Shown here: positions 11,250-64,000 of the stretch, one piece after another | How positions within the stretch are numbered: position 1 is the stretch's first letter | How the letters are laid out: the number at the start of each line of letters is the position of its first letter | Position numbers and translations under genes: made by a program | Source of the DNA: an uncultured Actinomycetota bacterium | GTDB taxonomy: Bacteria; Actinomycetota; Actinomycetes; Actinomycetales; Dermatophilaceae | NCBI GenBank assembly: GCA_963747405.1 | Contig: CAVVFG010000011.1 | Span: forward strand, 5,018-69,017 | Direction: 5' to 3' | DNA: 64,000 nucleotides | The notes under the pieces: model-generated | Seen by the model: only the letters and a program-made list of their open reading frames with translations | Told to the model about the DNA's origin: nothing | Database searches by the model: none

Positions 11250-11253
<4 letters not shown>

Positions 11254-47016: not shown

Positions 47017-47486
47017 CCAGCCGCAGCGGCGAGCGTGGCCGCTCGAGGCAGGACGAGACCGGCTCGATCAGCCTGTTCATCCTCGGGCTGTCACTGGTCG
47101 CGATGCTGCTCATCGCCGGGGCCGTGGCCGTCACCTCCGCGCACCTGTCACGCATGCGGTTGCTCGACGTCGCCGACGGTGCCGCGCTGAGCGCGGCGAA
47201 CGCCCTCGACGACGCGGCCTACGCGCAGGGCGTGGGGGAGTCGGTGCCGCTGAGCAACGCCTCGGTGCAGGAGCGCGCAGCCGCCTACCTCGGTGCCCGT
47301 CCCCGACCGGGCAGCATCTCGCGGTGGCGGCTCGCGCCGGGCACCGGTACCCCTGACGGCCGGACCGCGGTGGTCGTGGTCGTCGGCGAGGCGCAGCTTC
47401 CGATGGTCGGCACGGCGCTGCGTGAGCTGGGGGTCAGCCTGACGATCCGCGTCGAGTCCAGGGCACGTTCCGACCTCGCCGGCTGA
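47013..47486 (+). CDS. TadG-like minor pilin
   Basis: DETGSISLFILG...LLDVADGAALSAA. Confidence 0.8.
   Translation: MTSRSGERGRSRQDETGSISLFILGLSLVAMLLIAGAVAVTSAHLSRMRLLDVADGAALSAANALDDAAYAQGVGESVPLSNASVQERAAAYLGARPRPGSISRWRLAPGTGTPDGRTAVVVVVGEAQLPMVGTALRELGVSLTIRVESRARSDLAG

Positions 47487-48184: not shown

Positions 48185-48185
<1 letters not shown>
47517..48185 (-). CDS. BldC/MerR-like HTH regulator with C-terminal all-helical domain
   Basis: WLGVNEASAMLGVSPATLRRW...GKI...TPGGHRRY. TGATG-coupled to the decaheme gene. Confidence 0.85.
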
Positions 48186-49977
<1,792 letters not shown>

Positions 49978-49981
<4 letters not shown>

Positions 49982-50819: not shown

Positions 50820-51752
50820 TCAGGTGTAGCTGTGCAGCCCGCCGAAGAAGGCGTTGCCGACGAAGGTCAGCACGACGCTCGCGAAGCCGATGACGAGCAG
50901 CCAGGCGGCGCGGCGGCCGGTCCAGCCGCGGGCGACGCGGGCGTGCAGGAAGCCGCCGTAGATCAGCCAGGTGACGAGCGAGGCGGTCTCCTTGGGGTCC
51001 CAGCTCCAGTAGCTGCCCCAGGCGATCTCGGCCCAGACGGCGCCGAGCACGAGCACCATGGTGTCGAGCGGGAAGCCGATGACGACGGCGCGGTAGCCGA
51101 GCCGGTCGAGCACCTCGTCCTTGGGCACCAGGTGCTTCCAGCGCTGCGGGGTCCACAGCGTGAGGGCGGCTGCTGCGAAGGAGATCGCGAAGGCGCCGTA
51201 GGCGAAGATCGCCACGATGATGTGGATGGTGAGCAGCAGGCTGTTCTGCAGGGCCGGCACCAGCGGGTCGACCTGGGTGTTCTGGGCGCCGGCGTAGAGC
51301 AGGGCGAGCACCGTCATCGGGAGGATGAACAGGGCCAGCGTGCGGGCGTGGTAGCGCCACTCGAAGTAGCAGTAGGCGGCGAGCATGCCCCAGGCCAGCG
51401 ACGTCGCGAACTCGTACTGGGTGACGAACGGGCCGTGGCCGGTGGCCGCCATCCGCAGGCCGAGGGCCGCCGTGAGGAAGCCGAGGGCGATCCAGGTCAG
51501 GCGCGTCCCGTAGCGGGCCAGGGTCGTCGCCGACACGGCGGTGTCCCGGGCCACGATGTCCTGCTGCGCGGCTGCGGAGACCGAGTCGACGTCGTCGAAC
51601 AGGTCCTCACCGGATGCCGTGACGAGCACCTTTCGCCGCGAGGCGCCGGCGGCCGCCCGGTGACCCGCGCTCATGGCCCACGCGTAGGCGATGGTCGCGA
51701 GGACCGTGGAGATCAGTGCCGCGACGAACGCGAACTGGGAGTAGGTGATCAT
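50820..51752 (-). CDS. ccsA: Cytochrome c synthase CcsA (ResC)
   Basis: WWD domain WAEIAWGSYWSWDPKET; His ligands in GHGPF, TIHII and FLHAR. Confidence 0.95.
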   Translation of the reverse strand: MITYSQFAFVAALISTVLATIAYAWAMSAGHRAAAGASRRKVLVTASGEDLFDDVDSVSAAAQQDIVARDTAVSATTLARYGTRLTWIALGFLTAALGLRMAATGHGPFVTQYEFATSLAWGMLAAYCYFEWRYHARTLALFILPMTVLALLYAGAQNTQVDPLVPALQNSLLLTIHIIVAIFAYGAFAISFAAAALTLWTPQRWKHLVPKDEVLDRLGYRAVVIGFPLDTMVLVLGAVWAEIAWGSYWSWDPKETASLVTWLIYGGFLHARVARGWTGRRAAWLLVIGFASVVLTFVGNAFFGGLHSYT

Positions 51753-51757
51753 GCCTG

Positions 51758-53269
51758 TCACTCCTTCGAGGGCTGGCCGACAGGGGCGTCAGGCCGTGTG
51801 ATGGTGGACACCAGGTCCGAGAACACCGGCTCGAAGCCGGGGTCACGCTTGAGGGGGGCGCCGAGCCGCACGCTGGCGGTGCCGTCGGCGGTGTCGCGTA
51901 CCCGCACCCACAGGCGGCGGTGCGGCATGAAGAACACCAGGTAGCAGCCCAGGATCAGCAGCGCCGCACCCAGGCCCACGACCCACGAGCCGCTGTCCTG
52001 CTTGACGGTCAGCCCGGTGTACTGGCGGTTGCGCTCGTAGGTGTAGGTGAGACCGTCGACGACGGCGGACTGACCCTGGCTGACCACCGGCGTGCCGAGG
52101 GGGGTGTCGACCCCGTCCTTGTGCACCTCGAGCTGCGCCGAGCCGGCGGGCAGGTCGGCCAGCACCTGGCCGGACGCGGCCTCGACGACGTAGACGGTGA
52201 TGCCGCGGTCGGGGATGGTCAGCTGCCCGATGCTCTGCTGCCCGTCGTCGGACTGCCACTGCAGCGGGACCAGCCCGGAGTAGACCTTGGTGTCGCCGTC
52301 GCTGACGGTGACGTCGGCGCCGTTGCCGAAGGACGACTGGTGGAACCACGTGCCGTCGTAGATGAGCGGCGAGTTCACCCGGGTCTCGTGGCGCGCGACC
52401 TGCTTGCCGTCCTGGGTCAGCACCAGGTCGGACACGTAGTCCTTGGGGGCCCCGTTGTCGTAGTAGGAGTCGGTGAAGCTCTTGGCCTCCACCGTCAGGC
52501 CGGTGCCGTGGCCCACGCTGACCGGCACGCCGACCGGCGCGATGAAGCTCTTGTCGCGAAAGCCCGTGCTGGCGCTGACGACGAAGCCGAGCATGACGAC
52601 GATGAGGCTGAGGTGGGCGATGACGGTGCCGAAGGGGCCCCAGCGGAAGCGGTCGGCGTACAGCGCTGTGCCGGTGGCGGCCTGGGCGTCGATGATGCGG
52701 AAGTGCTTGGCGCGCAGGGCTGCCCGCACGTGCTCGGTTGCCGCTGCGCTGTCCATGGGCAGGTCGACGGTGGCCCGCAGCGGCGCGTGGTCGTAGAAGA
52801 CCTCGCTCATCGTGGTGCGTGGCTTGGTCGCCACTCGCCACAGCCGGGGGGCCCGGTTGACCGAGCAGGCCAGGATGCTCAGGCTCAGCAGGGCGAACAG
52901 GCCCATGAAGTACCAGGTCGAGAAGACGTGGAACAGGCCGAGCTTGTCGAGGATGCCGGCCCACCCGCCGTAGCGCTGGGTCGGCGTGCCGGCGAGCCAC
53001 TGCTGGTACGCGGCCGGGTCGGCCCGCACCTCCGGCTCCACCTGCATGAGCAGGGTGCCGAGGAGGGTCAGCACGCCGAGGGTGAGGATGATCCACAGCC
53101 CGGTGCGCATCGAGATGAGGAAGAGCCAGATCTTGCGCAGCGGGTGGGCGTGGTGGTGGCCGTGGCCGTCCTGCTCACTCCCGTCCAGGACGTCGACGCC
53201 GTGCTCGTGGTCGACGTGTCCGGGCACGTGCGAGGTGATGTCCTCGCGGCCCCTCACGGTGGTCGTCAT
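51758..53269 (-). CDS. resB: Cytochrome c biogenesis protein ResB/CcsB
   Basis: FLISMRTGL, VFSTWYF, GTVIAHLSL, VNSPLIYDG..FHQSSF, YTGLTVKQDSG. His-rich N-tail. Confidence 0.92.
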   Translation of the reverse strand: MTTTVRGREDITSHVPGHVDHEHGVDVLDGSEQDGHGHHHAHPLRKIWLFLISMRTGLWIILTLGVLTLLGTLLMQVEPEVRADPAAYQQWLAGTPTQRYGGWAGILDKLGLFHVFSTWYFMGLFALLSLSILACSVNRAPRLWRVATKPRTTMSEVFYDHAPLRATVDLPMDSAAATEHVRAALRAKHFRIIDAQAATGTALYADRFRWGPFGTVIAHLSLIVVMLGFVVSASTGFRDKSFIAPVGVPVSVGHGTGLTVEAKSFTDSYYDNGAPKDYVSDLVLTQDGKQVARHETRVNSPLIYDGTWFHQSSFGNGADVTVSDGDTKVYSGLVPLQWQSDDGQQSIGQLTIPDRGITVYVVEAASGQVLADLPAGSAQLEVHKDGVDTPLGTPVVSQGQSAVVDGLTYTYERNRQYTGLTVKQDSGSWVVGLGAALLILGCYLVFFMPHRRLWVRVRDTADGTASVRLGAPLKRDPGFEPVFSDLVSTITRPDAPVGQPSKE

Positions 53270-53282
53270 CGCGATGCCTCTT

Positions 53283-54026
53283 TCAGACGGGGATGGTCGG
53301 GAAGAACTGGGAGAGCCGCATGAGCAGGTTCGTGATCATCAGGAAGCCGACGGCGACGAGCATGGAGCCGGTGGCCAGGGAGACGACGGCGTCGTGCCGG
53401 GCGAACCAGCTGAGGCGCTGGCGCAGGCTGTCCGCGCCGAGTGCCACGAGGATGAAGGGGATGCCGAGCCCGAGCGCGTAGGCGAGGAGCAGCACCGTCC
53501 CCTGGGCGAGGTCCGAGCGCAGCGACGCCAGGCCGATGATCCCGCTGAGGATCGGGCCGATGCAAGGCGTCCACCCGGCCGCGAACACCACCCCGAACAG
53601 CGCCGAGCGGCCCACGCGCGGCGCCTGCTCGATCACGGTGCCGTCGGCGTGGCGCTGCACGAGCCGGCCCATGTTGGCCCCGGCGCCGGCCTGGCGACCC
53701 AGGACCGGGAGCGAGATCAGGCCCGCGACGTGCAGGCCCATCACCACCAGGATGGCGCCGCCGACCTGGCGCAGCAGGCCGACGTGGTCGCGCAGCGCGT
53801 AGCCGACCAGCCCGATGGAGGCCCACAGCGCCACGAACACGACGGTGAAGCCGATGACGAAGGCCAGGGCCTGCCGGAAGGCGACACTGCGGGTGGGCCG
53901 GCCCGTGTCGTTGGTGCCGCCGACGATGAAACCGACGTAGACCGGCACCAGCGGCAGGCAGCACGGCGACGCGAACGACACCAGACCCGCGGCGAAGGCC
54001 ACCGCCAGGGTGATGTTCCCGTTCAT
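53283..54026 (-). CDS. ccdA: Cytochrome c biogenesis protein CcdA
   Basis: SFASPCCLPLVP and GWTPCIGPIL redox cysteine motifs. Confidence 0.94.
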   Translation of the reverse strand: MNGNITLAVAFAAGLVSFASPCCLPLVPVYVGFIVGGTNDTGRPTRSVAFRQALAFVIGFTVVFVALWASIGLVGYALRDHVGLLRQVGGAILVVMGLHVAGLISLPVLGRQAGAGANMGRLVQRHADGTVIEQAPRVGRSALFGVVFAAGWTPCIGPILSGIIGLASLRSDLAQGTVLLLAYALGLGIPFILVALGADSLRQRLSWFARHDAVVSLATGSMLVAVGFLMITNLLMRLSQFFPTIPV

Positions 54027-54065: not shown

Positions 54066-54955
54066 TCACTTGGCGGGCGTCGGCGCTGAGCTGGAGACGG
54101 ACCCGACCTGGGACTGCACGGTCTTGGCGAGCTCGCTGTTCGGGTCGATCGCCACGACCTTGGCCCACTCGGTCTTCATCTCCGCGTTGCGGCCGGTCGT
54201 CATGTAGAGGAAGCCCAGGTCGTAGTGCATCTCGGCGTTCTTCGGGTAGGCCTTGATGCCGGTCTTCCAGGCCTGCTCCGCGGCGGCGGTGTCGCCACCG
54301 TTGTAGGAGGCGGCCCCGAGGCTGATCAGGCCCTGCTCGTTCTTGGGGTCGACGGCCAGCACCTTCTGGGCAGAGGCCTTGGCGCTGGTCCAGTCGTTGG
54401 CGGTGAAGTACAGGTCGGTGATCTTCTGCAGCGACGCGACGTCCTTCGGGTCGGCCTTGACCTTCGCGGTCAGCGCGGCCAGCTGGGCCTGGTCGATCGT
54501 GGGCGCCGCGCTGGGGGCGGCGGCCGAGCTGGCGGTGGCGGCGGAGGTGACGTCCGGCACGGTGGGGCGGCCCATCCAGTAGACGCCGAACACGACTGCG
54601 ACCGTCGCGAGGACGGCGATGATGCCGATCAGGACGCGGTTGGTCGAGCCGCCCGCCGGCGCGGGGGCCGGTGCCACGACGGTGGCCGGAGCCGCCGCTC
54701 GGGAGGGGGGACGAGCTGGGACTCGGGACCTGTCAGCAGGGAGAAGATGCGGTCCGCCTCCTGCTGGCGGCGGTCCGCCCATCCGCGGATCTCGCTGGGC
54801 GCCTGGTCGAGGAAGTCACCGATCCGGTCGTACGTCGTCTCGACCTCCTGGTCGTCCGCGGCGGCGTCGAGCCCGAACCGGGCAAGCAGTCCGTCTCTCG
54901 TCACGACCGCGTCGGACGTGGTTCCCGTGGCGGTCGCTTCCCGTACTGGGGACAT
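54066..54955 (-). pseudogene. Membrane-anchored TPR protein (CycH/NrfG-like) split by a 1-nt deletion (may be an assembly error)
   Basis: The 5' part (ATG 54955, GAGGAG RBS) and the TM+TPR part are in different frames. Adding one base to the G6 run at 54705-54710 gives a continuous 891-nt ORF. Confidence 0.7.
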
Positions 54956-55034: not shown

Positions 55035-55065
55035 CTATCCGCCTAGGGGCACATATCCGATAGAG
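55035..55065. promoter_or_regulatory. Island operator-like motif, copy A
   Basis: CTATCCGCCTAGGGGCACATATCCGATAGAG, 24/31 identical to 61352-61382. Lies 80 nt upstream of the maturation operon start. Confidence 0.6.
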
Positions 55066-57740
55066 GTGACCGGGGCGGGGGTGCTGTACGTCGCCTGCTG
55101 GTGGTCCTTGCCGTGGCACGTGAGGGTGCACGAGGCGCCGGTCGCCGTCTTGGTGAAGGTGGGCACCCCGCCCATCGACCGGCTCGGCAGGACGTTCGGG
55201 CCGAAGACGACCAGGCGGTCGCCGGACAGCTTCTGGGTGGTCGGCGGCTTCGTCGTGCCGTGGTCGTCGAAGTGGCACTCCGCGCAGCGGGCGTTGCCCT
55301 GCCCGGCCCCGGGGGTGTCGATGTCGAGCCCGCCGCTGCCGGCGTCGGAGATCCCGGACGTGTGCAGGCCGTGGAACACGAAGTTCGTGCCCTCCGCCGC
55401 CGCGGGGCGCCGCTGGTTCATGAAGGGCGTCTCCATGTGGCAGGTGAGGCACAGCGCGAAGCCCGCGTTGTCGTAGAACCGCCCGGATGCCGAGAGCACG
55501 CGGTTCTCGTAGGGGCGAGTGAGGATTCCGCGGTTGGTGGAGGCGTGCACGGTGCTGGTGGCGTCGGGCGCGTTGCGGGCAGGGTCGGTCGACGTGCCGG
55601 TGGTGTTGCTCGAGTGGCAGCTGACGCAGCGCACGGTGTCGCCGGTGCTGAAGTTCCACAGCTTGTAGGGGGAGGTACCGGCGAGGCTGTCCGCCAGCTT
55701 CTGCGTCTGGTTCTTCCCGGGGGCCTCGATCGGGTGGTATGAGGCGTTCGCCGGGTTGAGCGCCACGGCGAGGTCGGTGGCGCTCTGCGACGGCTTGCCG
55801 GGCACGTCCGCCGGCTGAGAGGTGAAGCCGGAGTGGCACTTGAAGCAGAGCTGGTACTCCGCGGTGACCGGTGCGACGGTGCCGTCCAGCCAGGTGTAGC
55901 CGGGGGCTGTCCCGGCCGCCCCGTTGGTGACCGCGACGCCGGAGACGTTGACCAGTGAGCCCGGGGGCGTCCAGCCCGTGGCGGTCATGGTCGGGGGCGT
56001 GTCGGTCGAGCCGTGCGGGTTGTGGCAGTCGCTGCACTGGCTGTGCCGGTCGAGCCGGCCCTCGAACTCGTTCTCGGCGTCGAGCGTGTGGCCGGTGGCG
56101 TCCGCCGTGTCGTGCGACCAGTACGAGCGCGTCGTGGGGTCGTTCGCGGGCTGGCCGAGGGTGTACTGCGCCTTCACGTCAGCGGCATCGCCGACTGCGC
56201 CGCCCGCGTGGCAGGCGTAGCACTGCTCGGTGATCGACGGCGCCTTGACCAGCGCACCGGCCTTCGCCGTGTGTGCCTGGTGGCACACGCTGCACTGTCC
56301 GCTCGTCGTCGAGGAGTAGGGGTCGTGGATCGTCGCGGGACCGTTCGGCCCGACCGGTCCGACCGTCACGACGTACGACGGGCCGGCGGTGGCGACCTCG
56401 GTCAGCATGGCCTGCGCCGTGGTGTCGGGCACGAAGGCGGCAGCCATCGTGGCGACGAGGTCGGTGGCCGCAGCGGCAGCGGCCGGCGCGGCATCCGCGA
56501 CGTCGGTGGTGCTCGTGCTCGTGAGGTTTGCGGTGACGGGGACGGTGGTGCCGCCCCTCGCGGGCTGCGAGACCAGGCGGTAGGCGGGCGGCGCAGAGCC
56601 GGCCGCGGTGGTGGCGCGGGCCGGGGCGCTGCCGCTGGGGGATCCCTGCTTCTGACCCGGGCTCTGGAGCACCGGCGGTGGGTCGGCGACCGTCACGCTC
56701 ACCGTGTCCGCTCCGGGGATCGCGGCGCCGCCGTCGGTGACCCTCAGGTCGTAGGTCGCGCCGTACGGCGCGTCGATCGAGAAGGCAGCGGTGAACTCCT
56801 GCTCGGTCACGGTGCCGGCCAGCACGGTGTACCGGGGCGCGGCCTGGACCCCACTGAGCCGGTGTCCCTCGGCCTGGGCCGCCCCGTCGGGCGCGGCGAG
56901 CCGCGCCTCGTCGGGCGTGGTGGTGGTGTTCTCGGGTGCGGTTCGGGTGCCGCCGTTGGCCTTCACCCACTCCTCCGCCGCGTGCAACGGGATGGCGGGC
57001 ACCGCCTCGTCGGGCACCACCTGGAAGGTGTTCGCGCCGGCTACCCGGTACTCGAGCCGGGGCGCCACTGCCACGTCGCCGGGGCCGCCGTTGCCGAGCT
57101 GCAGCACGATGCGGAAGGTCTGGAAGGGGAGCAGGCCGGTGAGGGGCTGTCCGGCAGGCAGGTAGGTCGGCGTGGTGCCTGGAGCACCGAGGGTGGCCAG
57201 CGCCGCCGGCCCGCCGAACAGCCCTGGTGTGATGCTGGCCGGTGCGCTGGACGGCGTCGGTGACGGCGTGGGAGCCGGTGCTGCCGCCGAGGCGGAGGGC
57301 GCCGGGACAGGGCTCGCGGCCGACGGAGTGGACGAGGGTGTGGGGAGCGGGGACGGGGTGCTGCTGCCGTCGGCGGTGGCGCCCGGGGCCGGTGTGGGGG
57401 CCGGCGTCGGTACGGGGGTGGTCTGGATGCCGGCGCTGCCCGGGGTGGGGGTCGCGCTGCTCGACGGTGTGGTCACGTCGGTGACGGCGACCCGCTGGAC
57501 CGCGGCCTGCTGGGTGGCGGCCCGCTGGGTGGCGGCCCGCCGCGCCGCGGAAGCGCTCGCCGTGCGGGGGGTGGACGTGGGGGCTGCCACGGTCGGTGCC
57601 GGGCCGGCCGACTGCAGGCCCACGGTCTGCACGACGGCGATGGTCGACGCGGTGAGGAGCACCGCGGCGGCGGCGAGGACGTGGGCCGGCCGGACGTCGA
57701 ACCGCGCGGTGCGCGGTGTCCTGCGGCGCTCCTGCGTCAT
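55035..57740 (-). CDS. Stalked octaheme cytochrome c (7 CxxCH + 1 CxxxCH)
   Basis: N-terminal signal/TM, P/T/S/A-rich linker and beta-rich domain, then CSVCH, CYACH, CSDCH, CFKCH, CVSCH, CLTCH, CAECH, CTLTCH. Confidence 0.88.
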   Translation of the reverse strand: MTQERRRTPRTARFDVRPAHVLAAAAVLLTASTIAVVQTVGLQSAGPAPTVAAPTSTPRTASASAARRAATQRAATQQAAVQRVAVTDVTTPSSSATPTPGSAGIQTTPVPTPAPTPAPGATADGSSTPSPLPTPSSTPSAASPVPAPSASAAAPAPTPSPTPSSAPASITPGLFGGPAALATLGAPGTTPTYLPAGQPLTGLLPFQTFRIVLQLGNGGPGDVAVAPRLEYRVAGANTFQVVPDEAVPAIPLHAAEEWVKANGGTRTAPENTTTTPDEARLAAPDGAAQAEGHRLSGVQAAPRYTVLAGTVTEQEFTAAFSIDAPYGATYDLRVTDGGAAIPGADTVSVTVADPPPVLQSPGQKQGSPSGSAPARATTAAGSAPPAYRLVSQPARGGTTVPVTANLTSTSTTDVADAAPAAAAAATDLVATMAAAFVPDTTAQAMLTEVATAGPSYVVTVGPVGPNGPATIHDPYSSTTSGQCSVCHQAHTAKAGALVKAPSITEQCYACHAGGAVGDAADVKAQYTLGQPANDPTTRSYWSHDTADATGHTLDAENEFEGRLDRHSQCSDCHNPHGSTDTPPTMTATGWTPPGSLVNVSGVAVTNGAAGTAPGYTWLDGTVAPVTAEYQLCFKCHSGFTSQPADVPGKPSQSATDLAVALNPANASYHPIEAPGKNQTQKLADSLAGTSPYKLWNFSTGDTVRCVSCHSSNTTGTSTDPARNAPDATSTVHASTNRGILTRPYENRVLSASGRFYDNAGFALCLTCHMETPFMNQRRPAAAEGTNFVFHGLHTSGISDAGSGGLDIDTPGAGQGNARCAECHFDDHGTTKPPTTQKLSGDRLVVFGPNVLPSRSMGGVPTFTKTATGASCTLTCHGKDHQQATYSTPAPVTSIGYVPLGG

Positions 57741-57785
57741 CGTCGGTGCTCCAGTCGCTCGTCGTTCGTTCGTCGTCCGGAGCCA

Positions 57786-57812
57786 CAGGCGGCCTGGGTG
57801 AGAGGCCGCCTG
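57786..57812 (-). terminator. Perfect 10-bp stem-loop between the hexaheme and octaheme genes
   Basis: CAGGCGGCCT (57786-57795), 7-nt loop, AGGCCGCCTG (57803-57812). No U-tract. Confidence 0.55.
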
Positions 57813-57853
57813 CAGCTCACAGACGGGTCTGGCTCGGTGTGGTGTCCGCCGGG

Positions 57854-59044
57854 TCAGACGTTGTGGCACATCACGCAGGTACCGCGGTCGTCCACACGGA
57901 GCAGACGGCTGTCGGAGCTGGTGCCGGTGCCGTTGGGCCACTCGACCTTCGAGTTCGGCATCTGGGCGTTCGTGCCGTGTGCTACGTGGCACTGGATGCA
58001 GTTGCGGTTTGCCGAGGCGTCGCCGCTGACCTGGTCGCCGGTGTGCCGGTACGAGAAGACGGCGTCACCGGAGTTCTTGCCCCACGACCCGGACGGTGCC
58101 AGGTACCGCGTGTGGCACGTGGTGCACCACGCGGCGACATTCGCCTGGAACGAGCTGACGGTCGCGGAGATCGTCTTCTGAACCGGGGTCGGGTCGGTGG
58201 TGGAGGTTCCTCCGAGGATGGTCGTCGTGCCCGTGTCGGCCACGGCGTTGGGGTCGCCGGCGATCCAGTAGTTGGTCGTCGTGTAGACCTTGTTCGCCGT
58301 GTCCTTGATGACGATCCCGGGCGTGGTGTTGCCCGGAAGGGTCGCCGTGAACCCCGAGTCGGACGGCACAGCCCGCAGGATGCGGTACTGCCCGTTGCCG
58401 TGCGGGTCGTGGCAGGCCGTGCACTCGAGCTTGGTGTTCGTCGTCGTGCTCATGTCCTTGCCGGCGTTCGCCGTGCCGGAGATGGGCCCGTTGCCCCACA
58501 TGATGCCCACGCCACCGAGGTGGTTGGACGTCGTGTCCTGCGGGGTGGCGGCGGGTGGGACCAGCTGGTTGCGGGACCGGTAGTTCGTACCGCTGAGGTA
58601 GATCTCCTTGGTCGCCGTACCCGTCCCGAGTGCTGCCTTCTCGAAGCCGCCACCCCGCAGGGCGCCGGCCACTGTGGTGCCACGGTCGACGGTCAGGGTG
58701 GTTCCGTCGGGGTACGTCGTCGTCGATGCGGCGTCGTAACCCAACCCACTCTGTACGTCGGTCGTTGCACCGGTTCCACCGTCACCGTGGCACGAGTAGC
58801 ACAGGCTTTCCTCGCTCGTGGCGTTGAGCAGGTAAGCCGCGCGAGCCGTGTGGGCCCGGTGGCACGAGGCGCAACGCCCCTGGCCGGCATCGGTGATCTT
58901 GACACCGCTGGTCGGCGTGTTCGTGGCGGTGGACACGTGTGGGCCGTTGTCGGCGTAGGCCGGCACCGCCCCGAGGAAGAACGCGGCCGCGGCCGTCGCG
59001 CCAAGCGCTACCAGCCTCGTCCGTACCTTCTTGTGCGTTCTCAT
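57854..59044 (-). CDS. Secreted hexaheme cytochrome c, OmcS/CwcA-like (putative nanowire subunit)
   Basis: Sec signal ending AYA|D; CASCHRAH, CYSCH, LECTACHDPH-YRIL, WCTTCH, CIQCHVAH, terminal CVMCHNV. Confidence 0.85.
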   Translation of the reverse strand: MRTHKKVRTRLVALGATAAAAFFLGAVPAYADNGPHVSTATNTPTSGVKITDAGQGRCASCHRAHTARAAYLLNATSEESLCYSCHGDGGTGATTDVQSGLGYDAASTTTYPDGTTLTVDRGTTVAGALRGGGFEKAALGTGTATKEIYLSGTNYRSRNQLVPPAATPQDTTSNHLGGVGIMWGNGPISGTANAGKDMSTTTNTKLECTACHDPHGNGQYRILRAVPSDSGFTATLPGNTTPGIVIKDTANKVYTTTNYWIAGDPNAVADTGTTTILGGTSTTDPTPVQKTISATVSSFQANVAAWCTTCHTRYLAPSGSWGKNSGDAVFSYRHTGDQVSGDASANRNCIQCHVAHGTNAQMPNSKVEWPNGTGTSSDSRLLRVDDRGTCVMCHNV

Positions 59045-59089
59045 TGTCGCGTTCCAATCTGAGCTGTGAAGTTGTGTACTCCTGTTGTT

Positions 59090-59187: not shown

Positions 59188-60261
59188 TCAGTACCCCCAC
59201 ACCTCGATGCGGTTGTTCTCCCGGTCGGCGACGTAGACGCGACCACGGGTGTCCGCGGCAACGCCGTTGGGGAAGGTGAACTTGCCGTCGTCGTGCCCCT
59301 CGTCGCCGAAGGAGGCGACGTAGCCGGGGTGGTCCGTCGGCGAGGAGCCGAGCGTGAACAGCCGCACCATGTGGTCGGTGGTGTCGGCCACGAACATCCG
59401 GCCCTGGTCGTCGACCGCGAGGCCGCGGGGCAGGCCCAGGTCGCCGTCGCCGACGCCACGGGCGATGAGGGTCGACACCGTGCCGGCCCGGTCGATGGAG
59501 ACGACGCGACCGTTGTTGCTGTCGCTGACGTAGATGCCGCCGTCCGGCCTGACGACGATGGCGTTGGGGTAGTTGAGCTCGCCCTTGCCGAGCACGCTGC
59601 GCAGCGTGCCGTCGTGGGCGAACACCAGGATCCGGTGGTCGGCGGGCTTGGCGCTGAGCACGTCGGCGACGTAGACGGTGCCGTCGGGGCCGACCGCCAG
59701 GCCCAGGGGCGAGATGGTGCCGACGCCCTTGCCCTTCGGCTGGAAGGTGGAGAGGTAGGTGCCGGTCTCGTCGTAGACGTACACCTTGCCGGCTGCGCGG
59801 TCGCCGACGTAGACGTCGGCGTTGGTGGGGTCGACCGCGACGTAGACGGGCACGTGCAGCGTCTTGGGTGTGGCCGGGGGCAGCAGCTCGCCGACCTTGA
59901 CGCCGTCGCGGTCGAAGATGAACGTCGTCGGGGTGGCGCCGGACTGCGTCGCGTAGATCCGCTCCCCGTCGGGCGAGACGGCGACGCCGAGCGGGCGGAC
60001 GACGTCGTAGACCGACGTCTTGTAGGTGGGGGCGTGCGCGTCGCTGAGCCCGGGCAGCTCGGTGAGCGGCTTGCGGTTCAGCAGGTACCAGGTGAACAGG
60101 CCCACGAGGAGCACGAGCAGGGCGAACACGACGGCGAGGATGATGCGGCGGCGCTTGCGGCGGCCCTCGTCGACGGGCGGCACCGGGGCCGGCGGGGTGG
60201 GGGGCTCGGAGAGGTCGTCGAGCAGGTCGAGCAGGTCGGTGCTGGACTGGGTCTCACTCAT
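59188..60261 (-). CDS. Membrane-anchored NHL-repeat beta-propeller protein
   Basis: TM after RRKRRR; repeats PLGVAVSPDG, PVYVAVD, PLGLAVGPDG, PNAIVV, PRGLAVD, PNGVAAD. Confidence 0.9.
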   Translation of the reverse strand: MSETQSSTDLLDLLDDLSEPPTPPAPVPPVDEGRRKRRRIILAVVFALLVLLVGLFTWYLLNRKPLTELPGLSDAHAPTYKTSVYDVVRPLGVAVSPDGERIYATQSGATPTTFIFDRDGVKVGELLPPATPKTLHVPVYVAVDPTNADVYVGDRAAGKVYVYDETGTYLSTFQPKGKGVGTISPLGLAVGPDGTVYVADVLSAKPADHRILVFAHDGTLRSVLGKGELNYPNAIVVRPDGGIYVSDSNNGRVVSIDRAGTVSTLIARGVGDGDLGLPRGLAVDDQGRMFVADTTDHMVRLFTLGSSPTDHPGYVASFGDEGHDDGKFTFPNGVAADTRGRVYVADRENNRIEVWGY

Positions 60262-60273: not shown

Positions 60274-61254
60274 TCACTTCTTCTTCGCCGTGGCCGGTGG
60301 TGCGAGGGGCTTGACGCCGATGGCTGCCAGCGCGCTGATGGCGGCGATGTTCTTGGGGTCCTTGGCCAGCGCCTTCTGGTACCAGGTGCCGGCGGCCTTG
60401 GTGTCGTGGCCGGTCTCGGCGATGAGTCCGAGCCCGAGCATCGCGTCGGCGGCGGCGGGGCCTGCGGTGAGAGCGGTGAGCTGGGTGCGGGCCTGGTCGA
60501 CCTTTCCGCTGCAGAAGCCGCCCATCGCCGAGGAGTAGCTCGCGAGCTCGGGCTTCTTCAGCGCGGCGTAGGCGGCCTGCATCTGCTGGTAGGGCTCGCA
60601 CCAGCCGGTCGGCACGAAGCGCAGGGCGTCGCGGAAGGTCGCGACCGCCTCGGCGTTCGCGCCCTTCTGCATCTGGGCCAGGCCCACCTGGTACATGGCG
60701 TCGGAGTCGGTCGGCTCGATCTTCAGCGCGTGGCCGAGCTGGCCGAGTGCGACGTCCGACTTGTTCTGCTTCACCGCGATGCTGCCCAGGTAGTAGTACG
60801 CCGCAGCGAGCTGGGAGTCGGCGCCGGCGAACTCACCCTTGCGGGTGGCCGTGACGATCTGGGTGAGGGATGCGGTGGCCTGGTCGAGCTGGCCCTTCGT
60901 CATCAGGGCGAAGCCCTTGCCGAGCAGCGCGTCCTTGTTGCCGGGGGCGGCCTTGAGCACCTGGTCGAACTGCTTGACCGCGTCGTCGTAGCGCGCGGCC
61001 TGCTCGTACACCTCGCCCAGCTGGAGCCGGGCCTGCAGGTCGTCGGGGTTCTTGCGCACTGCTGCCTCGGTGAGCGCGACCTGCCGCTCGACGATGGAGG
61101 GCGCGGCGGTCACGTGCTGGTCCTTGTAGTACAGGAGCCCGAAGGCGACCAGCCCGACGGCGAGGGCCGCGGCCCCGATACGCAGGAGCACGGCCATCGT
61201 GCGGTCGGACGGATCCGCCGCCGTGAGCCGGTGGGGGCTCATCGTGTGTGCCAT
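60274..61254 (-). CDS. Membrane-anchored TPR protein
   Basis: N-terminal TM; TPR signatures (ARLQLGEVYEQAARYDDA, ALLGKGFAL, AMYQVGLAQ). GAGGT RBS. Confidence 0.88.
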   Translation of the reverse strand: MAHTMSPHRLTAADPSDRTMAVLLRIGAAALAVGLVAFGLLYYKDQHVTAAPSIVERQVALTEAAVRKNPDDLQARLQLGEVYEQAARYDDAVKQFDQVLKAAPGNKDALLGKGFALMTKGQLDQATASLTQIVTATRKGEFAGADSQLAAAYYYLGSIAVKQNKSDVALGQLGHALKIEPTDSDAMYQVGLAQMQKGANAEAVATFRDALRFVPTGWCEPYQQMQAAYAALKKPELASYSSAMGGFCSGKVDQARTQLTALTAGPAAADAMLGLGLIAETGHDTKAAGTWYQKALAKDPKNIAAISALAAIGVKPLAPPATAKKK

Positions 61255-61351
61255 AGGTACCTCACCCGTTCCTTTGGCGGTGTGGCGGCATCCCTGCCGT
61301 CGGAGGACGGACCTCCTCCACGTCCATCGTGGGTGGGCGGGCCGGTGAGGC

Positions 61352-61382
61352 CTATCCGCCGCAGGGTAGATATCGGGTAGAG
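61352..61382. promoter_or_regulatory. Island operator-like motif, copy B
   Basis: CTATCCGCCGCAGGGTAGATATCGGGTAGAG in the divergent gap between the TPR gene and the kinase gene. Confidence 0.6.
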
Positions 61383-61562
61383 CCCTGGCCGCGACCCCCT
61401 CGCCGGGCACACCGGCTCGACGGGCGGGCGCGACATCGGCACCACTACACTGCGTCGTGGACAGCGCCCGGAAGGCGCCGGCAAAGGAGCGGACCGATCA
61501 ACACCAGTGGAGTGACCGGCTCGGGAGGCGCCGAGAGCGCGCACTCCCGCTCTGCCGCCACC

Positions 61563-63356
61563 ATGGCGGAGCGCCCTGGCCCCGATCCGGTCGTCGGTCC
61601 CGCTCCGCGTACCCGGCTGGTCGACCGCCGGCTGTGGGCGATCGGCATCCTGGTTCCCGTCGGGTTCGCGATCGGGCTCGAGCTGGTCCGCTGGCAGCTC
61701 GAGCAGCAGGGCGTCTGGTCGCCGGGCGTCTTCGAGATCTGGCACATCGCCGGCCTGGCCGTGGTCGTGGTCGGCATCGTGCTGTTCGCGTTGTTCATGT
61801 TCCGGCTCATCGACCAGATCGACCGGCAGGTCGTCCGCCAGAACCGCGACCTCACCGCGGCGAACGCCGTGGCGGGGGCCATCCAGGGCCAGGCGACGGT
61901 GCCGGCCATCGTCGACAGTGCCCTGACCTCGCTGCTGCGCACCTCGGGGGCCCGCCAGGCCCGCATCCGCTTCCCGGAGCCGGTCGGGTTGCCCGACAGG
62001 GACACCCACGCCCGCACGCTCACCGTTTCCGGCGCCCGGGTCGACACCGGCAGCCCCTCGCTCGAGGTGCCCATGGCACACGGTTCTGGCGTCGTCGGAC
62101 GGCTGGCTCTGTGGTACCCGGCGGGTGCCGATGTCGCCGACCGCATCGGCGGCGCCGCGCTGTCCAGCCTGACCACCCAGATCGCATGCGCCATCCAGCT
62201 GGCCGGCGCAGTGGGCGACCTGGAACGGCGCAAGCTGGAAGGACACGCCTTCTACGACATCCTCCTGCGCGTCTCGAACCAGGAGCCGACCACGCCGGTG
62301 CTCGAGGCGGTCGTTCGACATGCGGCTGCACTGCTCGGTGCGGATGCCGCCGTCGTCACGGTGTCGCCGGAGACGACCCGCACGATCCGGTTCGATTCGG
62401 GGTCGGGGGCACAGGCGCCGGCGCAGCGGCCCGACGGCGCCACCGTCGTGTCCTTCGGGCTGCCCGTCGCGCCGCCGCCGGGCGGCGGCCAGGCCACGGC
62501 CGCCGCCGACGACCGCGAGTGGGCGCACACCGCGAGCCGCGACGTCACCGGCGGGGCCGGCCACCTCGGCGAGCTGTGGGTGGCCCGCACCACTGGGGCC
62601 GAGTTCACCGACCGCGACCGCGGTTTCCTCGGCACCCTGGCGAGCCTGGCCGGCATCGCGCTGTCCGGGGCCCAGATGCGCGAGGGCGCGCGGCAGCGCG
62701 CCGTGCTCAGCGAGCGCACCCGGATCGCGCGTGAGATGCACGACAGCCTGGCCCAGGTGCTCGGGGCAGTGCACCTGCGGCTGCGGGCCCTCGAGACCGG
62801 CGTCGGAACCCTGACCGACGACGCGGTGGTGGCCGAGGTGGAGGCGCTCGCGGACGTGTGCGCCGAGGCCTACCGCGATGTGCGCGAGACCATCCTCGGG
62901 CTGCGTGACGCAAACCGGCACGCCGAACGCAGCCTCGAGGACAACCTGCGGTCCTACCTCGAGGCCTACTCCACCCAGAGCGGCATCGGCGCCCGGCTGG
63001 ACAACGAGGTCGGCCACGAGGTGGCGCTCTCGCCGAGGGCCGAGGTGCACATCATCCGGATCGTCCAGGAGGCGCTGACCAACGTGCGCAAGCACGCGGG
63101 CGCCCGCTCGGTGGTCGTCAGCATCCGCGGCGACGACACCACGACGTGCTTCGTCGTCGCCGACGACGGCGTCGGCTTCGACACCGAGGCGACGGCCGGC
63201 TCGCAGGACGGCTACGGCCTGTTCACCATGCGCGACCGGGCGGCACTGCTGGGCGGTACGGTGCAGGTCCACTCCGCACCCGGGGCCGGAACCACCGTGA
63301 CGGCCAGCGTGCCCGAGCGGCCCCATCCCTCCTTCACCACGAGGCCCACCGGATGA
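61563..63356 (+). CDS. Sensor histidine kinase (2 TM, GAF-like domains, HisKA_3, HATPase)
   Basis: ERTRIAREMHDSLAQ, RIVQEALTNVRKHA, DDGVGF, GYGLFTMRDRA. Confidence 0.92.
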   Translation: MAERPGPDPVVGPAPRTRLVDRRLWAIGILVPVGFAIGLELVRWQLEQQGVWSPGVFEIWHIAGLAVVVVGIVLFALFMFRLIDQIDRQVVRQNRDLTAANAVAGAIQGQATVPAIVDSALTSLLRTSGARQARIRFPEPVGLPDRDTHARTLTVSGARVDTGSPSLEVPMAHGSGVVGRLALWYPAGADVADRIGGAALSSLTTQIACAIQLAGAVGDLERRKLEGHAFYDILLRVSNQEPTTPVLEAVVRHAAALLGADAAVVTVSPETTRTIRFDSGSGAQAPAQRPDGATVVSFGLPVAPPPGGGQATAAADDREWAHTASRDVTGGAGHLGELWVARTTGAEFTDRDRGFLGTLASLAGIALSGAQMREGARQRAVLSERTRIAREMHDSLAQVLGAVHLRLRALETGVGTLTDDAVVAEVEALADVCAEAYRDVRETILGLRDANRHAERSLEDNLRSYLEAYSTQSGIGARLDNEVGHEVALSPRAEVHIIRIVQEALTNVRKHAGARSVVVSIRGDDTTTCFVVADDGVGFDTEATAGSQDGYGLFTMRDRAALLGGTVQVHSAPGAGTTVTASVPERPHPSFTTRPTG

Positions 63357-64000
63357 GCGAGCCGATCCGCATCCTGCTCGTCGACGACCAGCCGCTCTTT
63401 CGTGGTGCGATCGCCGCGCTGCTCGCCAGCCAGCCCGACATGGAGGTGGTCGGCGAGGCCGAGAACGGCCTCCTCGGGGTCGAGAAGGCCCGCGAGCTGC
63501 ATCCCGACCTCGTCATCCTCGACGTCGACATGCCGGTGATGAACGGCGTCGAGGCGGTGCGGCTGATCCGCGAGCAGGTGATGGACGTCAAGGTCATCAT
63601 GCTGACCGTCTCCGACGTCGAGGACCACGTCATGGACGCCCTGCGCCACGGGGCGCACGGCTACCTGCTCAAGGACCTGCGCCCCGAGCAGCTGCACGAC
63701 ATGATCCGCTCGGTCATGCGCAACGAGACGCCCATCTCACCGGCCGTCGCCGGCCGGCTGCTCCGCGAGATCCGCGACGGCGGCGCGAAGAAGGTCACCT
63801 CACCGTCCCCGGAGCAGGCCCGGTCAGTGGTGACGCCGCGCGAGCTGGAGATCCTCCGGCTGGTGGCCGTGGGGATGAGCAACAAGGAGATCGCCAAGCG
63901 GCTCGTCATCACCGAGGGCACGGTCAAGAACCACGTGCACAACGCCCTCGAGAAGCTGCACCTCGACAACCGGATCCAGGCTGCCGCGTACGTGATCCGG
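63353..64000 (+). CDS. NarL/LuxR response regulator, 3'-truncated by window edge
   Basis: IRILLVDDQ, DLVILDVDMP, GAHGYLLKD, TPRELEILRL...NKEIA...TVKNHVHN. ATGA-coupled to the kinase. Confidence 0.93.
   Translation, partial: MSEPIRILLVDDQPLFRGAIAALLASQPDMEVVGEAENGLLGVEKARELHPDLVILDVDMPVMNGVEAVRLIREQVMDVKVIMLTVSDVEDHVMDALRHGAHGYLLKDLRPEQLHDMIRSVMRNETPISPAVAGRLLREIRDGGAKKVTSPSPEQARSVVTPRELEILRLVAVGMSNKEIAKRLVITEGTVKNHVHNALEKLHLDNRIQAAAYVIR

Follow-up and report, generated by a model that had tools for sequence, protein, structure and literature searches.

An OmcS-like hexahaem cytochrome as a putative wire element in a gene module for extracellular electron transfer of monoderm bacteria

Introduction

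The cytochrome filament OmcS of Geobacter sulfurreducens consists of hexahaem subunits in which haem 5 owes one of its ligands, a distal His, to the neighbouring subunit (PMC6584659; PMC9473688). Filaments of the tetrahaem cytochrome OmcE also use a histidine of the adjacent subunit (PMC9473688). The loci of the OmcE type also carry a gene for a beta-propeller protein, and the bacterial examples described are from diderm phyla and have a gene for an outer-membrane barrel (bioRxiv 10.1101/2025.10.22.684050).

In Thermincola potens and T. ferriacetica an OmcS-like hexahaem cytochrome of the cell wall, CwcA, works with the membrane decahaem cytochrome ImdcA; it has been proposed to stack as a wire across the peptidoglycan, based on a homology model built on OmcS at 18% identity (PMC7911101). 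Gram-positive iron reducers also pair NHL and TPR genes with multihaem cytochromes (PMC10376724). Arbour et al. 2020 noted a homologue of OmcS, with each of the six CxxCH motifs, in a MAG of the Coriobacteriales (PMC7399161). No cytochrome filament from monoderm (Gram-positive-type) bacteria was described in the literature searched, and a review of cytochrome nanowires from 2026 contains no mention of Gram-positives or Actinobacteria. Mineral-directed electron transfer in single-membrane, thick-walled bacteria is much less understood than the systems of Geobacter and Shewanella.

The locus described here was found in a 64,000-nucleotide stretch of DNA from an uncultured member of the Dermatophilaceae (Actinomycetota), the whole of which is referred to as the window. 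Sequence comparisons point to a real, uncharacterised wire cytochrome of the OmcS superfamily that would belong to an extracellular electron transfer system of monoderm bacteria.

Results

The gene for the hexahaem c-type cytochrome (57854..59044), for which no strand was given in the initial annotation, lies on the minus strand according to the reading of the open reading frame (ORF). The precursor (MRTHKK...CVMCHNV*) has 396 amino acid residues and the mature protein 365, and the assignment is based on the ORF, the motifs, Pfam and hhalign. The GC3 of the gene, 0.89, is like that of the neighbouring genes. A plus-strand ORF over the same gene (57716-59062) was rejected as a GC-rich shadow frame. 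Residues 1-31 (58952..59044, minus strand) form a predicted Sec signal peptide, with hydrophobic residues from 9 to 27, in which neither a lipobox nor a twin-arginine motif was found. Cleavage is predicted between ...AVPAYA and DNGPH, the site read from the sequence in the initial annotation, and A29, A31, D32, G34 and H36 around it are invariant in 59 homologues.

All 12 cysteines lie within six CxxCH motifs, which start at residues 58, 82, 208, 307, 349 and 390. Beyond those of the motifs, exactly six histidines occur in the mature protein, H36, H65, H175, H215, H334 and H356; the precursor has a seventh, H4, inside the signal peptide. The translated ORF therefore bears out the six motifs and six further histidines noted at the outset, and this pattern is conserved across the homologues. 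From the N-terminus onwards (all coordinates on the minus strand), His36 of the GPH motif (58937..58939), the fifth residue of the mature protein, is a proposed distal haem ligand, which is invariant in the 59 homologues or at least 90% conserved in a set of 108. The haem 1 motif CASCHRAH (C58-H65; 58850..58873) includes His65, a candidate inter-subunit ligand, and the haem 2 motif CYSCH (C82-H86; 58787..58801) is aligned with haem 2 of OmcS. A putative distal ligand lies between haems 2 and 3 (His175 in TTSNH; 58520..58522) and another between haems 4 and 5 (His334 in YRH; 58043..58045), both of which are invariant in the 59 and the 108 sequences. The haem 3 motif CTACHDPH (C208-H215; 58400..58423), then G-N-G-Q-YR, is the best-conserved match to OmcS (CSSCHDPHGKYR), while the haem 4 motif (W)CTTCH (C307-H311; 58112..58126) matches WCANCH of OmcS and the haem 5 motif CIQCHVAH (C349-H356; 57977..58000) matches CLSCHRAH. 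The haem 6 motif CVMCH (C390-H394; 57863..57877) ends two residues before the stop codon and is found at the same C-terminal place in most members of the family.

The 12 cysteines and 12 histidines are invariant or at least 90% conserved among the 59 and 108 homologues (35-93% identity), and exactly six CxxCH motifs are present in 130 of 144 family representatives. Together with the GC3 value and the environmental transcription described below, this shows that the architecture has not arisen by chance. The pattern suggests a Sec-exported c-type cytochrome in which every haem is bis-His ligated. The domain matches above cut-off are generic: Pfam PF09699 (Paired_CXXCH_1; 65.4 bits, cut-off 20.6) leaves the function undefined, as a generic domain, and the same class of match was obtained with the doubled CXXCH domain TIGR01905 (64.4 bits, cut-off 25.2). 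The named multihaem families of NCBIfam all scored below cut-off, including DmsE (35 bits against 192), GSU2203 (31 against 325), NrfH (20.7 against 134) and NrfB (17.7 against 167).

Comparison of the hexahaem family with the OmcS family profile by hhalign gave a probability of 99.2 and an E value of 2.7e-19, and a probability of 98.9 when the signal peptides were left out. The alignment with G. sulfurreducens OmcS that had been proposed in the initial annotation is collinear through all six haem motifs; with a low mact setting the six are aligned in order from residues 1-396 of the query to residues 1-433 of OmcS. In a block-permutation control (160 permutations) the native order scored 131.5 against a mean of 85 (sd 20) and ranked second among 161 orders, an equally good score being reached when the haem 1 and haem 5 blocks were swapped. 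The haem 2-3-4 segment supplies most of the homology signal. Since the blocks of haems 1 and 5 can change places without loss of score, the correspondence of His65 to His16 of OmcS rests on position, the alignment itself being ambiguous. In BLASTP the hexahaem protein is only 24% identical to OmcS over 221 columns (E 2e-7); an HMM of the OmcS family matched all 264 members of the hexahaem family, and the hexahaem family profile matched OmcS in the PDB with an E value of 4.4e-3. A phmmer search of the PDB sequences with the single protein did not find OmcS and gave only motif-level matches, such as MtrA (mislabelled entry 6r2q). Judged by sequence, the protein is a distant homologue of OmcS at the superfamily level, close members of the OmcS family being at least 50% identical.

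The likeness to OmcS (6EF8/6NEF) extends to the order of the six CxxCH motifs, those of haems 1, 3 and 5 having the form CxxCHxxH in either family, to GGxF after haem 2, CHDPHG-x-YR at haem 3 and WCxxCH at haem 4, and to a last haem that lies 2-3 residues from the C-terminus. The non-motif histidines of the OmcS family (precursor numbering) are H27, H41, H135, H172, H282 and H360, of which five are invariant and H27 is at least 90% conserved. Both families have one such histidine per inter-motif segment, including one within the first five residues of the mature protein. The counterparts are His36 and mature His2 of OmcS, His65 and His16, His175 and the histidine of KGH110, and His334 and that of LRH257; the last pair is topological, since His334 is not placed opposite H257 by hhalign because the loop lengths differ. 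The one-to-one ligand architecture proposed from the sequence is therefore seen again in the family alignments, as the same six-His pattern with profile probabilities of 98.9-99.2. The order of OmcS landmarks given in that proposal holds for the motifs, which are collinear, but its YRIL match is partly coincidental: in the profile alignment HGNGQYRIL lies opposite HGKYRRF of OmcS, right after CHDPHG, and not opposite the later AYRIL.

In addition to the low identity, the protein differs from OmcS in the length of the mature chain (365 against 407 residues), in other loop lengths and in predicted beta-rich insertions. The profile match to OmcE is weak (E 1.9e-4, in the region of the LECGSCH motif), and the tetrahaem nanowires of this type (G. 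sulfurreducens, 7TFS; Desulfuromonas soudanensis; archaeal PcECN/AvECN) differ in having four haems, with similarity in one motif. The Coriobacteriales protein differs in being 28% identical to OmcS and detectable by BLASTP, and in its source, an anaerobic member of the Coriobacteriia whose genome encodes many multihaem cytochromes; its description includes no conserved module, expression data or family survey (PMC7399161).

The AlphaFold model built from 108 diverse sequences has a pLDDT of 85.6; a model from 59 sequences had a pLDDT of 60, and the Foldseek search made with it was meaningless. The hexahaem models contain no haems. An arm comprising residues 32-80, with His36, haem 1 and His65, is of low confidence (pLDDT 52-71) and the rest of the chain is above 85; such an arm fits one that would pack onto a neighbouring subunit. 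Beta strand is predicted for about 21% of the model, above the content reported for OmcS, and the decorations around the haem core probably differ from those of OmcS, while the fold outside the core may also differ. A Foldseek search of the PDB with the model of pLDDT 85.6 returned neither OmcS nor any other cytochrome, the best E value being 2.7. For OmcS and OmcE themselves, Foldseek reportedly retrieves close homologues only (PMC9473688), and the null result was therefore treated as uninformative on homology.

The hexahaem gene is part of a recurring gene order, TPR-NHL-hexahaem-octahaem-TPR-CcdA-ResB-CcsA-decahaem with a two-component system, which recurs among 78 loci of the Actinomycetota and Chloroflexota. 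Upstream, on the same strand, are the genes of a membrane-anchored NHL-repeat beta-propeller protein of 357 residues (59188..60261, minus strand; Pfam NHL 6.9e-26; transmembrane residues 36-54), which adjoins the hexahaem gene in 77 of the 78 loci, and of a membrane-anchored TPR protein (60274..61254, minus strand, start uncertain within 61197-61410; Pfam TPR_16 2.6e-26 and a weak TPR_CcmH_CycH match), a type present in 73 loci. Beyond these lies a divergent two-component system (61329..64000, plus strand), with a HisKA_3 kinase (61329-63356, start uncertain) and a NarL/LuxR-type regulator that runs from 63353 to the end of the window; its genes are adjacent in 59-61 of the 78 loci.

Downstream, an octahaem cytochrome of 901 residues (55035..57740, minus strand) has an N-terminal membrane anchor, a stalk rich in Pro, Thr, Ser and Ala, a beta domain, and seven CxxCH motifs and one CxxxCH. 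It matches the Pfam MtrC/MtrF domain II/IV (5.6e-12), all eight motifs are present in 44 of 50 homologues, and the conserved residues include 16 Cys and 20 His with no Met. Its haem 1-2 module is 39% identical to residues 56-129 of the hexahaem protein, and it is a candidate surface-exposed or anchoring partner. A second membrane-anchored TPR protein of 238 residues (54066..54782, minus strand; 61 of 78 loci) is followed by dedicated genes for System II cytochrome c maturation (50820..54026, minus strand), which encode CcdA (53283-54026; DsbD_TM 3.6e-17), ResB (51758-53269; 1.6e-72) and CcsA/ResC (50820-51761; Cytochrom_C_asm 5.7e-41) and are syntenic in 49-55 of the 78 loci. The last member is a membrane-anchored decahaem cytochrome with an N-terminal module of the NapC/NirT type (48185..49981, minus strand; about 598 residues from MSTSGDD, 10 CxxCH, one transmembrane segment; Cytochrom_NNT 3.9e-11). 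On the basis of its family it is a candidate quinol dehydrogenase feeding the pathway, and its similarity to ImdcA of Thermincola lies in the N-terminal module only (BLASTP 1e-11, 28% over 110 residues).

By description, CwcA (Tfer_0075 in T. ferriacetica) shares with the present protein the hexahaem, all-bis-His character, the monoderm host and, as a candidate in the window, a partner decahaem in the membrane. Thermincola differs in being a thermophilic member of the Firmicutes, of another phylum and habitat, and in its terminal reductase, the nonahaem OcwA, which is of another type; the window encodes no nonahaem like OcwA. The omcS locus of Geobacter likewise combines a gene for a beta-propeller with a two-component system next to it, but its propeller is of the YncE/lactonase type and is accompanied by a 718-residue protein without a Pfam match and an LpoB-like lipoprotein, where the window has the NHL propeller and the TPR proteins. 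As expected for a monoderm actinobacterium, outer-membrane components are absent from the cluster in the window, including any outer-membrane barrel or lipoprotein secretion gene. The cluster further differs from that of OmcS in its TPR, System II, NapC-type decahaem and stalked octahaem genes.

The 113-nt spacer after the stop codon of the hexahaem gene contains a strong RNA stem-loop (57775..57824, minus strand; MFE -52 kcal/mol, z -4.2). A counterpart of this hairpin is present in 82% of 40 related loci, with a median z of -3.6 against -0.05 to -1.0 in control windows, and a GC-rich hairpin is also found 3' of the omcS gene. Metatranscriptome depth falls at the position of the hairpin, which is a probable attenuator or 3' stabiliser that would raise hexahaem mRNA over that of the downstream genes. 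Relatives of the hexahaem gene are transcribed in soil, peat, wetland, freshwater sediment and ice, and were found in at least 22 metatranscriptome runs at 14-27% of words, compared with 2 runs at 4% for the NHL gene and 8 runs at 5-10% for CcdA and ResB. In four runs the hexahaem gene had a contig depth of 9-37 where most neighbours had 0-5; such depth measures expression poorly, and these runs had been picked because they contain the hexahaem gene. An excess of transcript over the neighbours is as expected for an abundant structural subunit. A sigma-70-like promoter over the start codon was rejected, the metatranscriptome contigs carrying a 5' leader of at least 30-60 nt.

The hexahaem family comprises 3117 clusters at 50% identity in the Actinomycetota and Chloroflexota, with members in the Actinomycetes, the Thermoleophilia and the Chloroflexota. 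The samples from which cluster-bearing Actinomycetota and Chloroflexota originate include soil, groundwater, peat (palsa), wetland and sediment, and the complete cluster is present in cultured strains of Intrasporangium (L006, L007); I. calvum PheN6 and Intrasporangium sp. DVR carry it in full.

Discussion

It is very probable that the protein is an OmcS-superfamily hexahaem cytochrome within a module for extracellular electron transfer. The best explanation overall, to which we give a probability of about 0.5, is an OmcS-like bis-His wire cytochrome that serves a monoderm electron transfer module and stacks into a polymer. Haem attachment would take place on the outer side of the membrane, through the System II that the cluster encodes (CcdA, ResB and CcsA), perhaps aided by the membrane-anchored TPR and NHL-propeller proteins. 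The decahaem, if it acts as other NapC/NirT-type proteins do, would draw electrons from the quinol pool, and the hexahaem protein, as the abundant wire element, would conduct them through the thick wall to or from the octahaem on its Pro/Thr stalk, and onward to acceptors or donors outside the cell, for example Fe(III)/Mn(IV) oxides and humics. We infer the location in the wall, the direction of the electrons, the polymerisation and the role of His65.

The subunits would most likely stack head to tail as in OmcS, with haem 1 against haem 6 of the neighbour and with His65 of CASCHRAH completing the ligation of the neighbour's haem 5, giving a polymer that spans the wall or is longer. The inter-subunit histidine of OmcS is reportedly His16, in the account of Wang et al. 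from 2019. By analogy with OmcS a nanowire is plausible, and a polymer with an inter-subunit histidine approaches an even chance; not every OmcS paralogue of Geobacter is known to polymerise, which counts against it. Also somewhat short of an even chance is the full picture of a monoderm nanowire in which a His65-to-haem 5' polymer crosses or extends beyond the wall, the octahaem with its paralogous haem 1-2 head primes or caps it, System II with the TPR and NHL proteins matures it, and hundreds of Actinomycetota and Chloroflexota of soil, wetland and sediment carry the module and transcribe it there.

The twelve axial ligands could instead all be intramolecular, in a non-polymerising relay in which a monomer or small oligomer, located between membrane and wall, carries electrons from decahaem to stalked octahaem or back. 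Six histidines for six haems fit this equally well; the AlphaFold monomer is compact and confident over residues 80-396, no fold match to the OmcS filament subunit was obtained with Foldseek, the octahaem on its long Pro/Thr stalk could alone bridge the wall, and the polymer of Thermincola CwcA is a homology model only (PMC7911101). However, the protein is collinearly homologous to one that has been solved only as a polymer, it has haems at both extreme ends of the chain, and the arm with His36, haem 1 and His65, though invariant in sequence, packs poorly when the monomer is modelled, while the transcript excess and the conserved attenuator-like hairpin are what is typically seen for a structural subunit of high stoichiometry. 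The relay is on balance doubtful, if far from improbable.

Unlikely, in our view, is a wire for electron uptake, in which extracellular donors (Fe(II), Mn(II), reduced humics, a cathode or a partner cell) would supply the quinone pool or an oxidase. Chains of bis-His haems are reversible, and NapC/NirT-type proteins can work in either direction. Hosts such as Intrasporangium, Ornithinibacter, Dermatophilaceae and Solirubrobacterales are mostly known as aerobes or facultative aerobes, many of the source samples are soils and the MAG of one relative carries the label Mn-Chloroflexi (L078), all of which would suit uptake; against it, no feature of the sequence sets the direction, transcripts of relatives come from peat, wetland and freshwater sediment, settings in which cells may plausibly dispose of electrons without oxygen, and the closest Gram-positive gene sets, those of Thermincola and Dethiobacter, belong to Fe(III) reducers (PMC7911101, PMC10376724). 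Very unlikely is a respiratory enzyme system for a soluble substrate, in which the octahaem would be a catalytic enzyme like the octahaem enzymes for nitrite, tetrathionate, sulfite or hydroxylamine, served by the hexahaem protein as a dedicated redox partner. A NapC/NirT-type quinol dehydrogenase with a dedicated System II is a layout that nrf-type clusters share, nitrate/nitrite respiration is known from Intrasporangium calvum, and there is weak NCBIfam similarity to the NrfH and NrfB modules, far below cut-off, as is every score for an enzyme family. There is, however, no CxxCK or other signature of a catalytic haem, the 20 conserved His of the octahaem family for eight haems, with no Met, are enough for bis-His ligation throughout, the best domain match of the octahaem is to MtrC/MtrF domain II/IV, and a long Pro/Thr stalk is typical of surface display; an Nrf/Otr/Hao-like enzyme was rejected on the motifs and the NCBIfam scores.

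The OmcS-like wire cytochrome and its family point to one conserved genetic module for electron transfer from monoderm bacteria to minerals, carried by Actinomycetota and Chloroflexota that are not usually counted as electroactive. As cultured Intrasporangium strains carry the complete cluster, tests by genetics, electrochemistry and cryo-EM are directly possible. If the hexahaem protein polymerises, nanowires of the OmcS type would extend to monoderms, in a system without outer-membrane secretion parts that could ease the assembly of engineered conductive protein wires.

The hexahaem cytochrome and its family

The hexahaem gene (59044..57854, minus strand) is an ORF of 396 codons, MRTHKKVRTRLVALGATAAAAFFLGAVPAYA|DNGPH...CVMCHNV*, with a Sec-type signal peptide that has neither a lipobox nor a twin-arginine motif and is predicted to be cleaved before DNGPH. 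Every cysteine of the protein belongs to one of six CxxCH motifs, whose first residues are 58, 82, 208, 307, 349 and 390. The mature chain has six further histidines and no more (His36, His65, His175, His215, His334 and His356); a seventh in the precursor, His4, lies within the signal peptide. Every countable detail of the initial annotation (ORF coordinates, six CxxCH motifs and six further mature histidines) was thus borne out. The third-position GC of the gene (0.89) is like that of the adjoining genes, and a long plus-strand ORF across the same DNA was rejected as a shadow frame.

A word-indexed search recovered 1656 relatives and an exhaustive profile search 3117 clusters (50% identity) at E ≤ 1e-3, 449 of them at E ≤ 1e-30. 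In alignments of 59 and 108 members, reaching down to ~35% identity, all 12 cysteines, all 12 haem-ligand candidates and the mature N-terminus A-D-N-G-P-H are invariant or at least 90% conserved. Exactly six CxxCH motifs are present in 130 of 144 family representatives, in most of which the last motif lies 2–3 residues from the C-terminus. Judged by sequence, this is a conserved family, and its pattern has not arisen by chance. Some representatives (P0157, P0165, P0194, P0216, P0241 and others, including P0256 from a Limnocylindrales MAG of the Chloroflexota) carry a Pro-rich extension of 20–30 residues, ending in Pro (e.g. ...PTPAPLVP), after the last haem motif; the C-terminal haem end may therefore not be free in every member. 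Database names for the relatives are restricted to 'cytochrome c3 family protein', 'doubled CXXCH' or 'hypothetical'. In the curated libraries the generic Paired_CXXCH_1 is the sole domain recognised in the hexahaem protein, and the named multihaem families all score far under cut-off.

Relation to OmcS

OmcS, the hexahaem nanowire subunit of Geobacter sulfurreducens, was represented by a mature sequence identical to PDB 6EF8 chain A, and 44 members of its family were aligned for profile comparison. OmcS was not found when PDB sequences were searched with the hexahaem protein using phmmer; BLASTP aligned the two with 24% identity over 221 columns (E 2e-7), and the hexahaem family profile reached OmcS at E 4.4e-3, ranked after MtrA and OmcE. 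Plain sequence searches thus barely link the two families; profile-profile comparison links them clearly. The top PDB match, 6r2q_A, is labelled 'Cystathionine beta-synthase', yet its sequence is that of an MtrA-type decahaem with repeated CxxCH; the molecule name appears to be wrong.

The alignment proposed in the initial annotation bore out the relationship, being collinear over the six haem motifs with an hhalign probability of 99.2% (E 2.7e-19, score 146); on relaxed realignment the motifs were paired in order over the full length of both proteins. Off-register matches of unrelated haem motifs, taken as the background for CxxCH-rich proteins, scored only 32–45. As a control, signal peptides were removed and the six haem-centred blocks of the OmcS alignment permuted. 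The native order scored 131.5 against a permutation mean of 85 (sd 20, 160 permutations) and ranked second, exceeded solely by the order in which the CxSCHRAH-like blocks of haem 1 and haem 5 changed places. The core of the OmcS signal is thus the ordered haem 2-3-4 region (GGxF, LxCxxCHDPHG-x-YR, WCxxCHT).

Six non-motif histidines are conserved in the OmcS family (five invariant, His27 at least 90% conserved), each in an inter-motif segment of its own, with the first at mature position 2. This layout is that of His36 to His356 in the hexahaem protein, independently of any alignment, and both families have CxxCHxxH at haems 1, 3 and 5. The 'one-to-one ligand architecture' proposed earlier is thereby backed by data. 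One of the matches listed with it, YRIL, is shifted: hhalign pairs it with OmcS KYRRF and not with the later AYRIL.

Structure prediction

AlphaFold2 with 108 diverse sequences gave a hexahaem model with pLDDT 85.6 and pTM 0.83 (pLDDT 60 with 59 sequences). Beta strand makes up ~21% of the model (residues 100–200 and 272–297), more than is reported for OmcS, which makes it probable that the two proteins are decorated differently around the haem core. Confidence is >85 throughout except at mature residues 32–80 (52–71), which hold His36, the haem 1 motif and His65. This segment is sequence-invariant and in the model poorly packed as a monomer, as would be expected of an arm lying on a neighbouring subunit, and hints at such a role. 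A Foldseek search of the PDB with the model had a best E of 2.7 and returned no cytochrome; taken literally this is the non-OmcS fold that the initial annotation held would count against it, from a tool that for OmcS or OmcE is reported to recover close homologues and nothing more remote (PMC9473688).

Genomic context

On the minus strand, the hexahaem gene follows those of a membrane-anchored TPR protein and a membrane-anchored NHL beta-propeller and is followed, after a 113-nt spacer, by genes for an octahaem protein (55035–57740), a second TPR protein, CcdA, ResB and CcsA (together the full System II set for cytochrome c maturation) and a membrane-anchored decahaem with a NapC/NirT-like N-terminal module (48185–49981). 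Divergently transcribed genes next to this module encode a HisKA_3 kinase and a NarL/LuxR regulator.

The octahaem (901 aa, minus strand) is anchored at its N-terminus and continues with a Pro/Thr/Ser/Ala-rich stalk, a beta domain and seven CxxCH plus one CxxxCH motifs; among domain matches MtrC/MtrF domain II/IV scores best, and 44 of 50 family members have eight motifs. Its first two-haem module (residues 472–576; IHDPY...CSVCHQAHTAK...CYACHAGG) shares 39% identity over 83 aa with hexahaem residues 56–129 (the haem 1–2 region), with the preceding His and that of CxxCHxxH among the shared residues. On this resemblance, the module could dock on a hexahaem subunit in the manner that such subunits might use among themselves, and so serve as primer, anchor or cap.

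A close relative was present in 239 genomes in a scan of one genome per species. The 78 loci kept comprise 49 from the Actinomycetota (Intrasporangium, Ornithinibacter, Dermatophilaceae, Propionibacteriales, Micrococcales, Solirubrobacterales) and 29 from the Chloroflexota (Chloroflexia, Limnocylindrales). Gene order is kept almost wherever the contig is long enough, with the NHL propeller in 77 of the 78, the first TPR protein in 73, the octahaem in 63, the second TPR protein and response regulator in 61 each, the histidine kinase in 59, CcdA in 55, ResB in 52, CcsA in 49 and the decahaem in 30. At many Solirubrobacterales loci (L022, L026, L028, L030, L031, L034–L037 and others) the octahaem was not detected downstream of the hexahaem gene; instead the NHL and hexahaem genes are separated by ~2 kb of additional sequence, which suggests a different partner gene in that lineage.

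Outside the module the window carries genes ordinary for an actinobacterial chromosome (LpqB, HPF, SecA, NAD-glutamate dehydrogenase, Tad pilus genes). Positions 3–11253 hold a typical core (LpqB-like lipoprotein, hibernation-promoting factor, LuxR-type response regulator, GNAT acetyltransferase and SecA). The module is chromosomal and is not carried by any obvious mobile element. Tad/Flp-type pilus genes (42845–47486), including a T2SSE/CpaF-like ATPase (42845–44158) and a TadE-like gene (46181–46573), directly adjoin the module; a further TadE/Tad-domain ORF lies at 5280–6998. Next to the ATPase gene, a 1468-aa EssC/EccC-like protein (38413–42819, minus strand) has FHA/YscD-like N-terminal and FtsK/SpoIIIE ATPase domains. 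At ~14660–19130 and 23430–26450 no frame is favoured by codon-position GC, overlapping ORFs on both strands having first-position GC of 0.8–0.98 and third-position GC of ~0.8–0.9; low-complexity genes rich in Ala, Gly and Pro, or regions that are non-standard, may account for this.

Expression of the hexahaem gene

The window's own sequence is present in soil metagenomes, and samples of wetland, pond, sediment, rhizosphere and peat contain relatives. Across many studies (soil, peat, freshwater sediment, ice) the hexahaem gene was detected in at least 22 metatranscriptome runs (14–27% of 31-mers), compared with 2 RNA runs (4%) for the equally conserved NHL gene and 8 (5–10%) for the more conserved CcdA+ResB (2.3 kb). 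Contig depth, a crude measure of expression, was compared over the 15.5-kb module in four metatranscriptomes picked because the hexahaem gene was present. Depth was 9–37 on this gene; the neighbouring genes had essentially zero coverage in the two sediment runs, while in the peat and soil runs most neighbour bins were at ~0–5 with a few scattered at 8–18. Coverage drops at the 3′ end of the gene, where a stem-loop of ~21 bp is found (57824..57775; spacer MFE −52 kcal/mol, z −4.2). A comparable hairpin directly follows the hexahaem stop codon in 82% of 40 related loci (median z −3.6, against −0.05 to −1.0 in three control windows). Despite the crude depth measure and the selected runs, three independent lines agree that hexahaem mRNA is far more abundant than that of the partner genes; this is the pattern expected of a many-copy subunit. 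At the Geobacter locus (L079), omcS and omcT are each followed by a GC-rich hairpin (11305–11415 and 12708–12832; z −2.0 and −3.5), a loose parallel.

Comparison with known systems and proposed function

Multihaem cytochrome gene sets with NHL- and TPR-repeat proteins are known from the Gram-positive iron reducer Dethiobacter (PMC10376724). The Thermincola pathway consists of ImdcA (membrane decahaem), PdcA, CwcA (cell-wall hexahaem) and OcwA; CwcA, which could not be kept soluble, was modelled on OmcS (18% identity), and its subunits were proposed to form a stacked wire across the peptidoglycan; a polymer hypothesis thus already exists for Firmicutes (PMC7911101). The window's decahaem matches ImdcA in its N-terminal module (BLASTP 1e-11). 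In Geobacter, omcS has two-component system genes upstream and a beta-propeller gene downstream, beyond which lie genes for proposed outer-membrane secretion components, according to a recent paper citing Shen et al. 2025; OmcE loci encode a beta-propeller lipoprotein and an outer-membrane barrel (bioRxiv 10.1101/2025.10.22.684050). The window's cluster keeps the propeller and regulator but lacks the outer-membrane parts, which fits a monoderm host. OmcS has widespread proteobacterial homologues (PMC10954620) and one from the Coriobacteriales was noted in 2020 (PMC7399161). Our literature search found no account of the hexahaem family or its module in Actinomycetes, Thermoleophilia or Chloroflexota and no described Gram-positive cytochrome filament; neither Gram-positives nor Actinobacteria are mentioned in a cytochrome nanowire review of 2026.

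The hexahaem protein is most probably (about 0.85) a wire cytochrome of the OmcS superfamily that belongs to an extracellular electron transfer module. In such a monoderm conduit, the decahaem would trade electrons with the quinone pool. The System II encoded in the cluster would mature the hexahaem, which would form a haem chain through the wall, and the stalked octahaem would serve as surface or anchoring partner. The TPR proteins, which have a weak likeness to the CcmH/NrfG chaperone type, and the NHL propeller may aid maturation or assembly, and the two-component system would govern expression. The same module could be used for electron uptake, an unlikely directional variant that is compatible with the other readings. 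That the hexahaem protein is instead the redox partner of a soluble-substrate reductase is very improbable; the octahaem family conserves 16 Cys and 20 His and no Met, and so gives no sign of an open catalytic haem.

By homology with OmcS the hexahaem protein may polymerise, as initially annotated, at a little under even odds; a relay that does not polymerise is a credible reading, if a rather doubtful one. The inter-subunit ligand of OmcS was reportedly identified by Wang et al. in 2019 as His16, the His of the first CxxCHxxH, which makes His65 the candidate inter-subunit ligand of a putative head-to-tail hexahaem polymer. One haem 5 ligand of OmcS is supplied by the adjacent subunit (PMC6584659, PMC9473688), and by homology haem 5 of the hexahaem protein would likewise take one ligand from its neighbour. 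Cultured Intrasporangium strains (L006, L007) carry the full cluster, and the nanowire hypothesis is therefore open to direct test.
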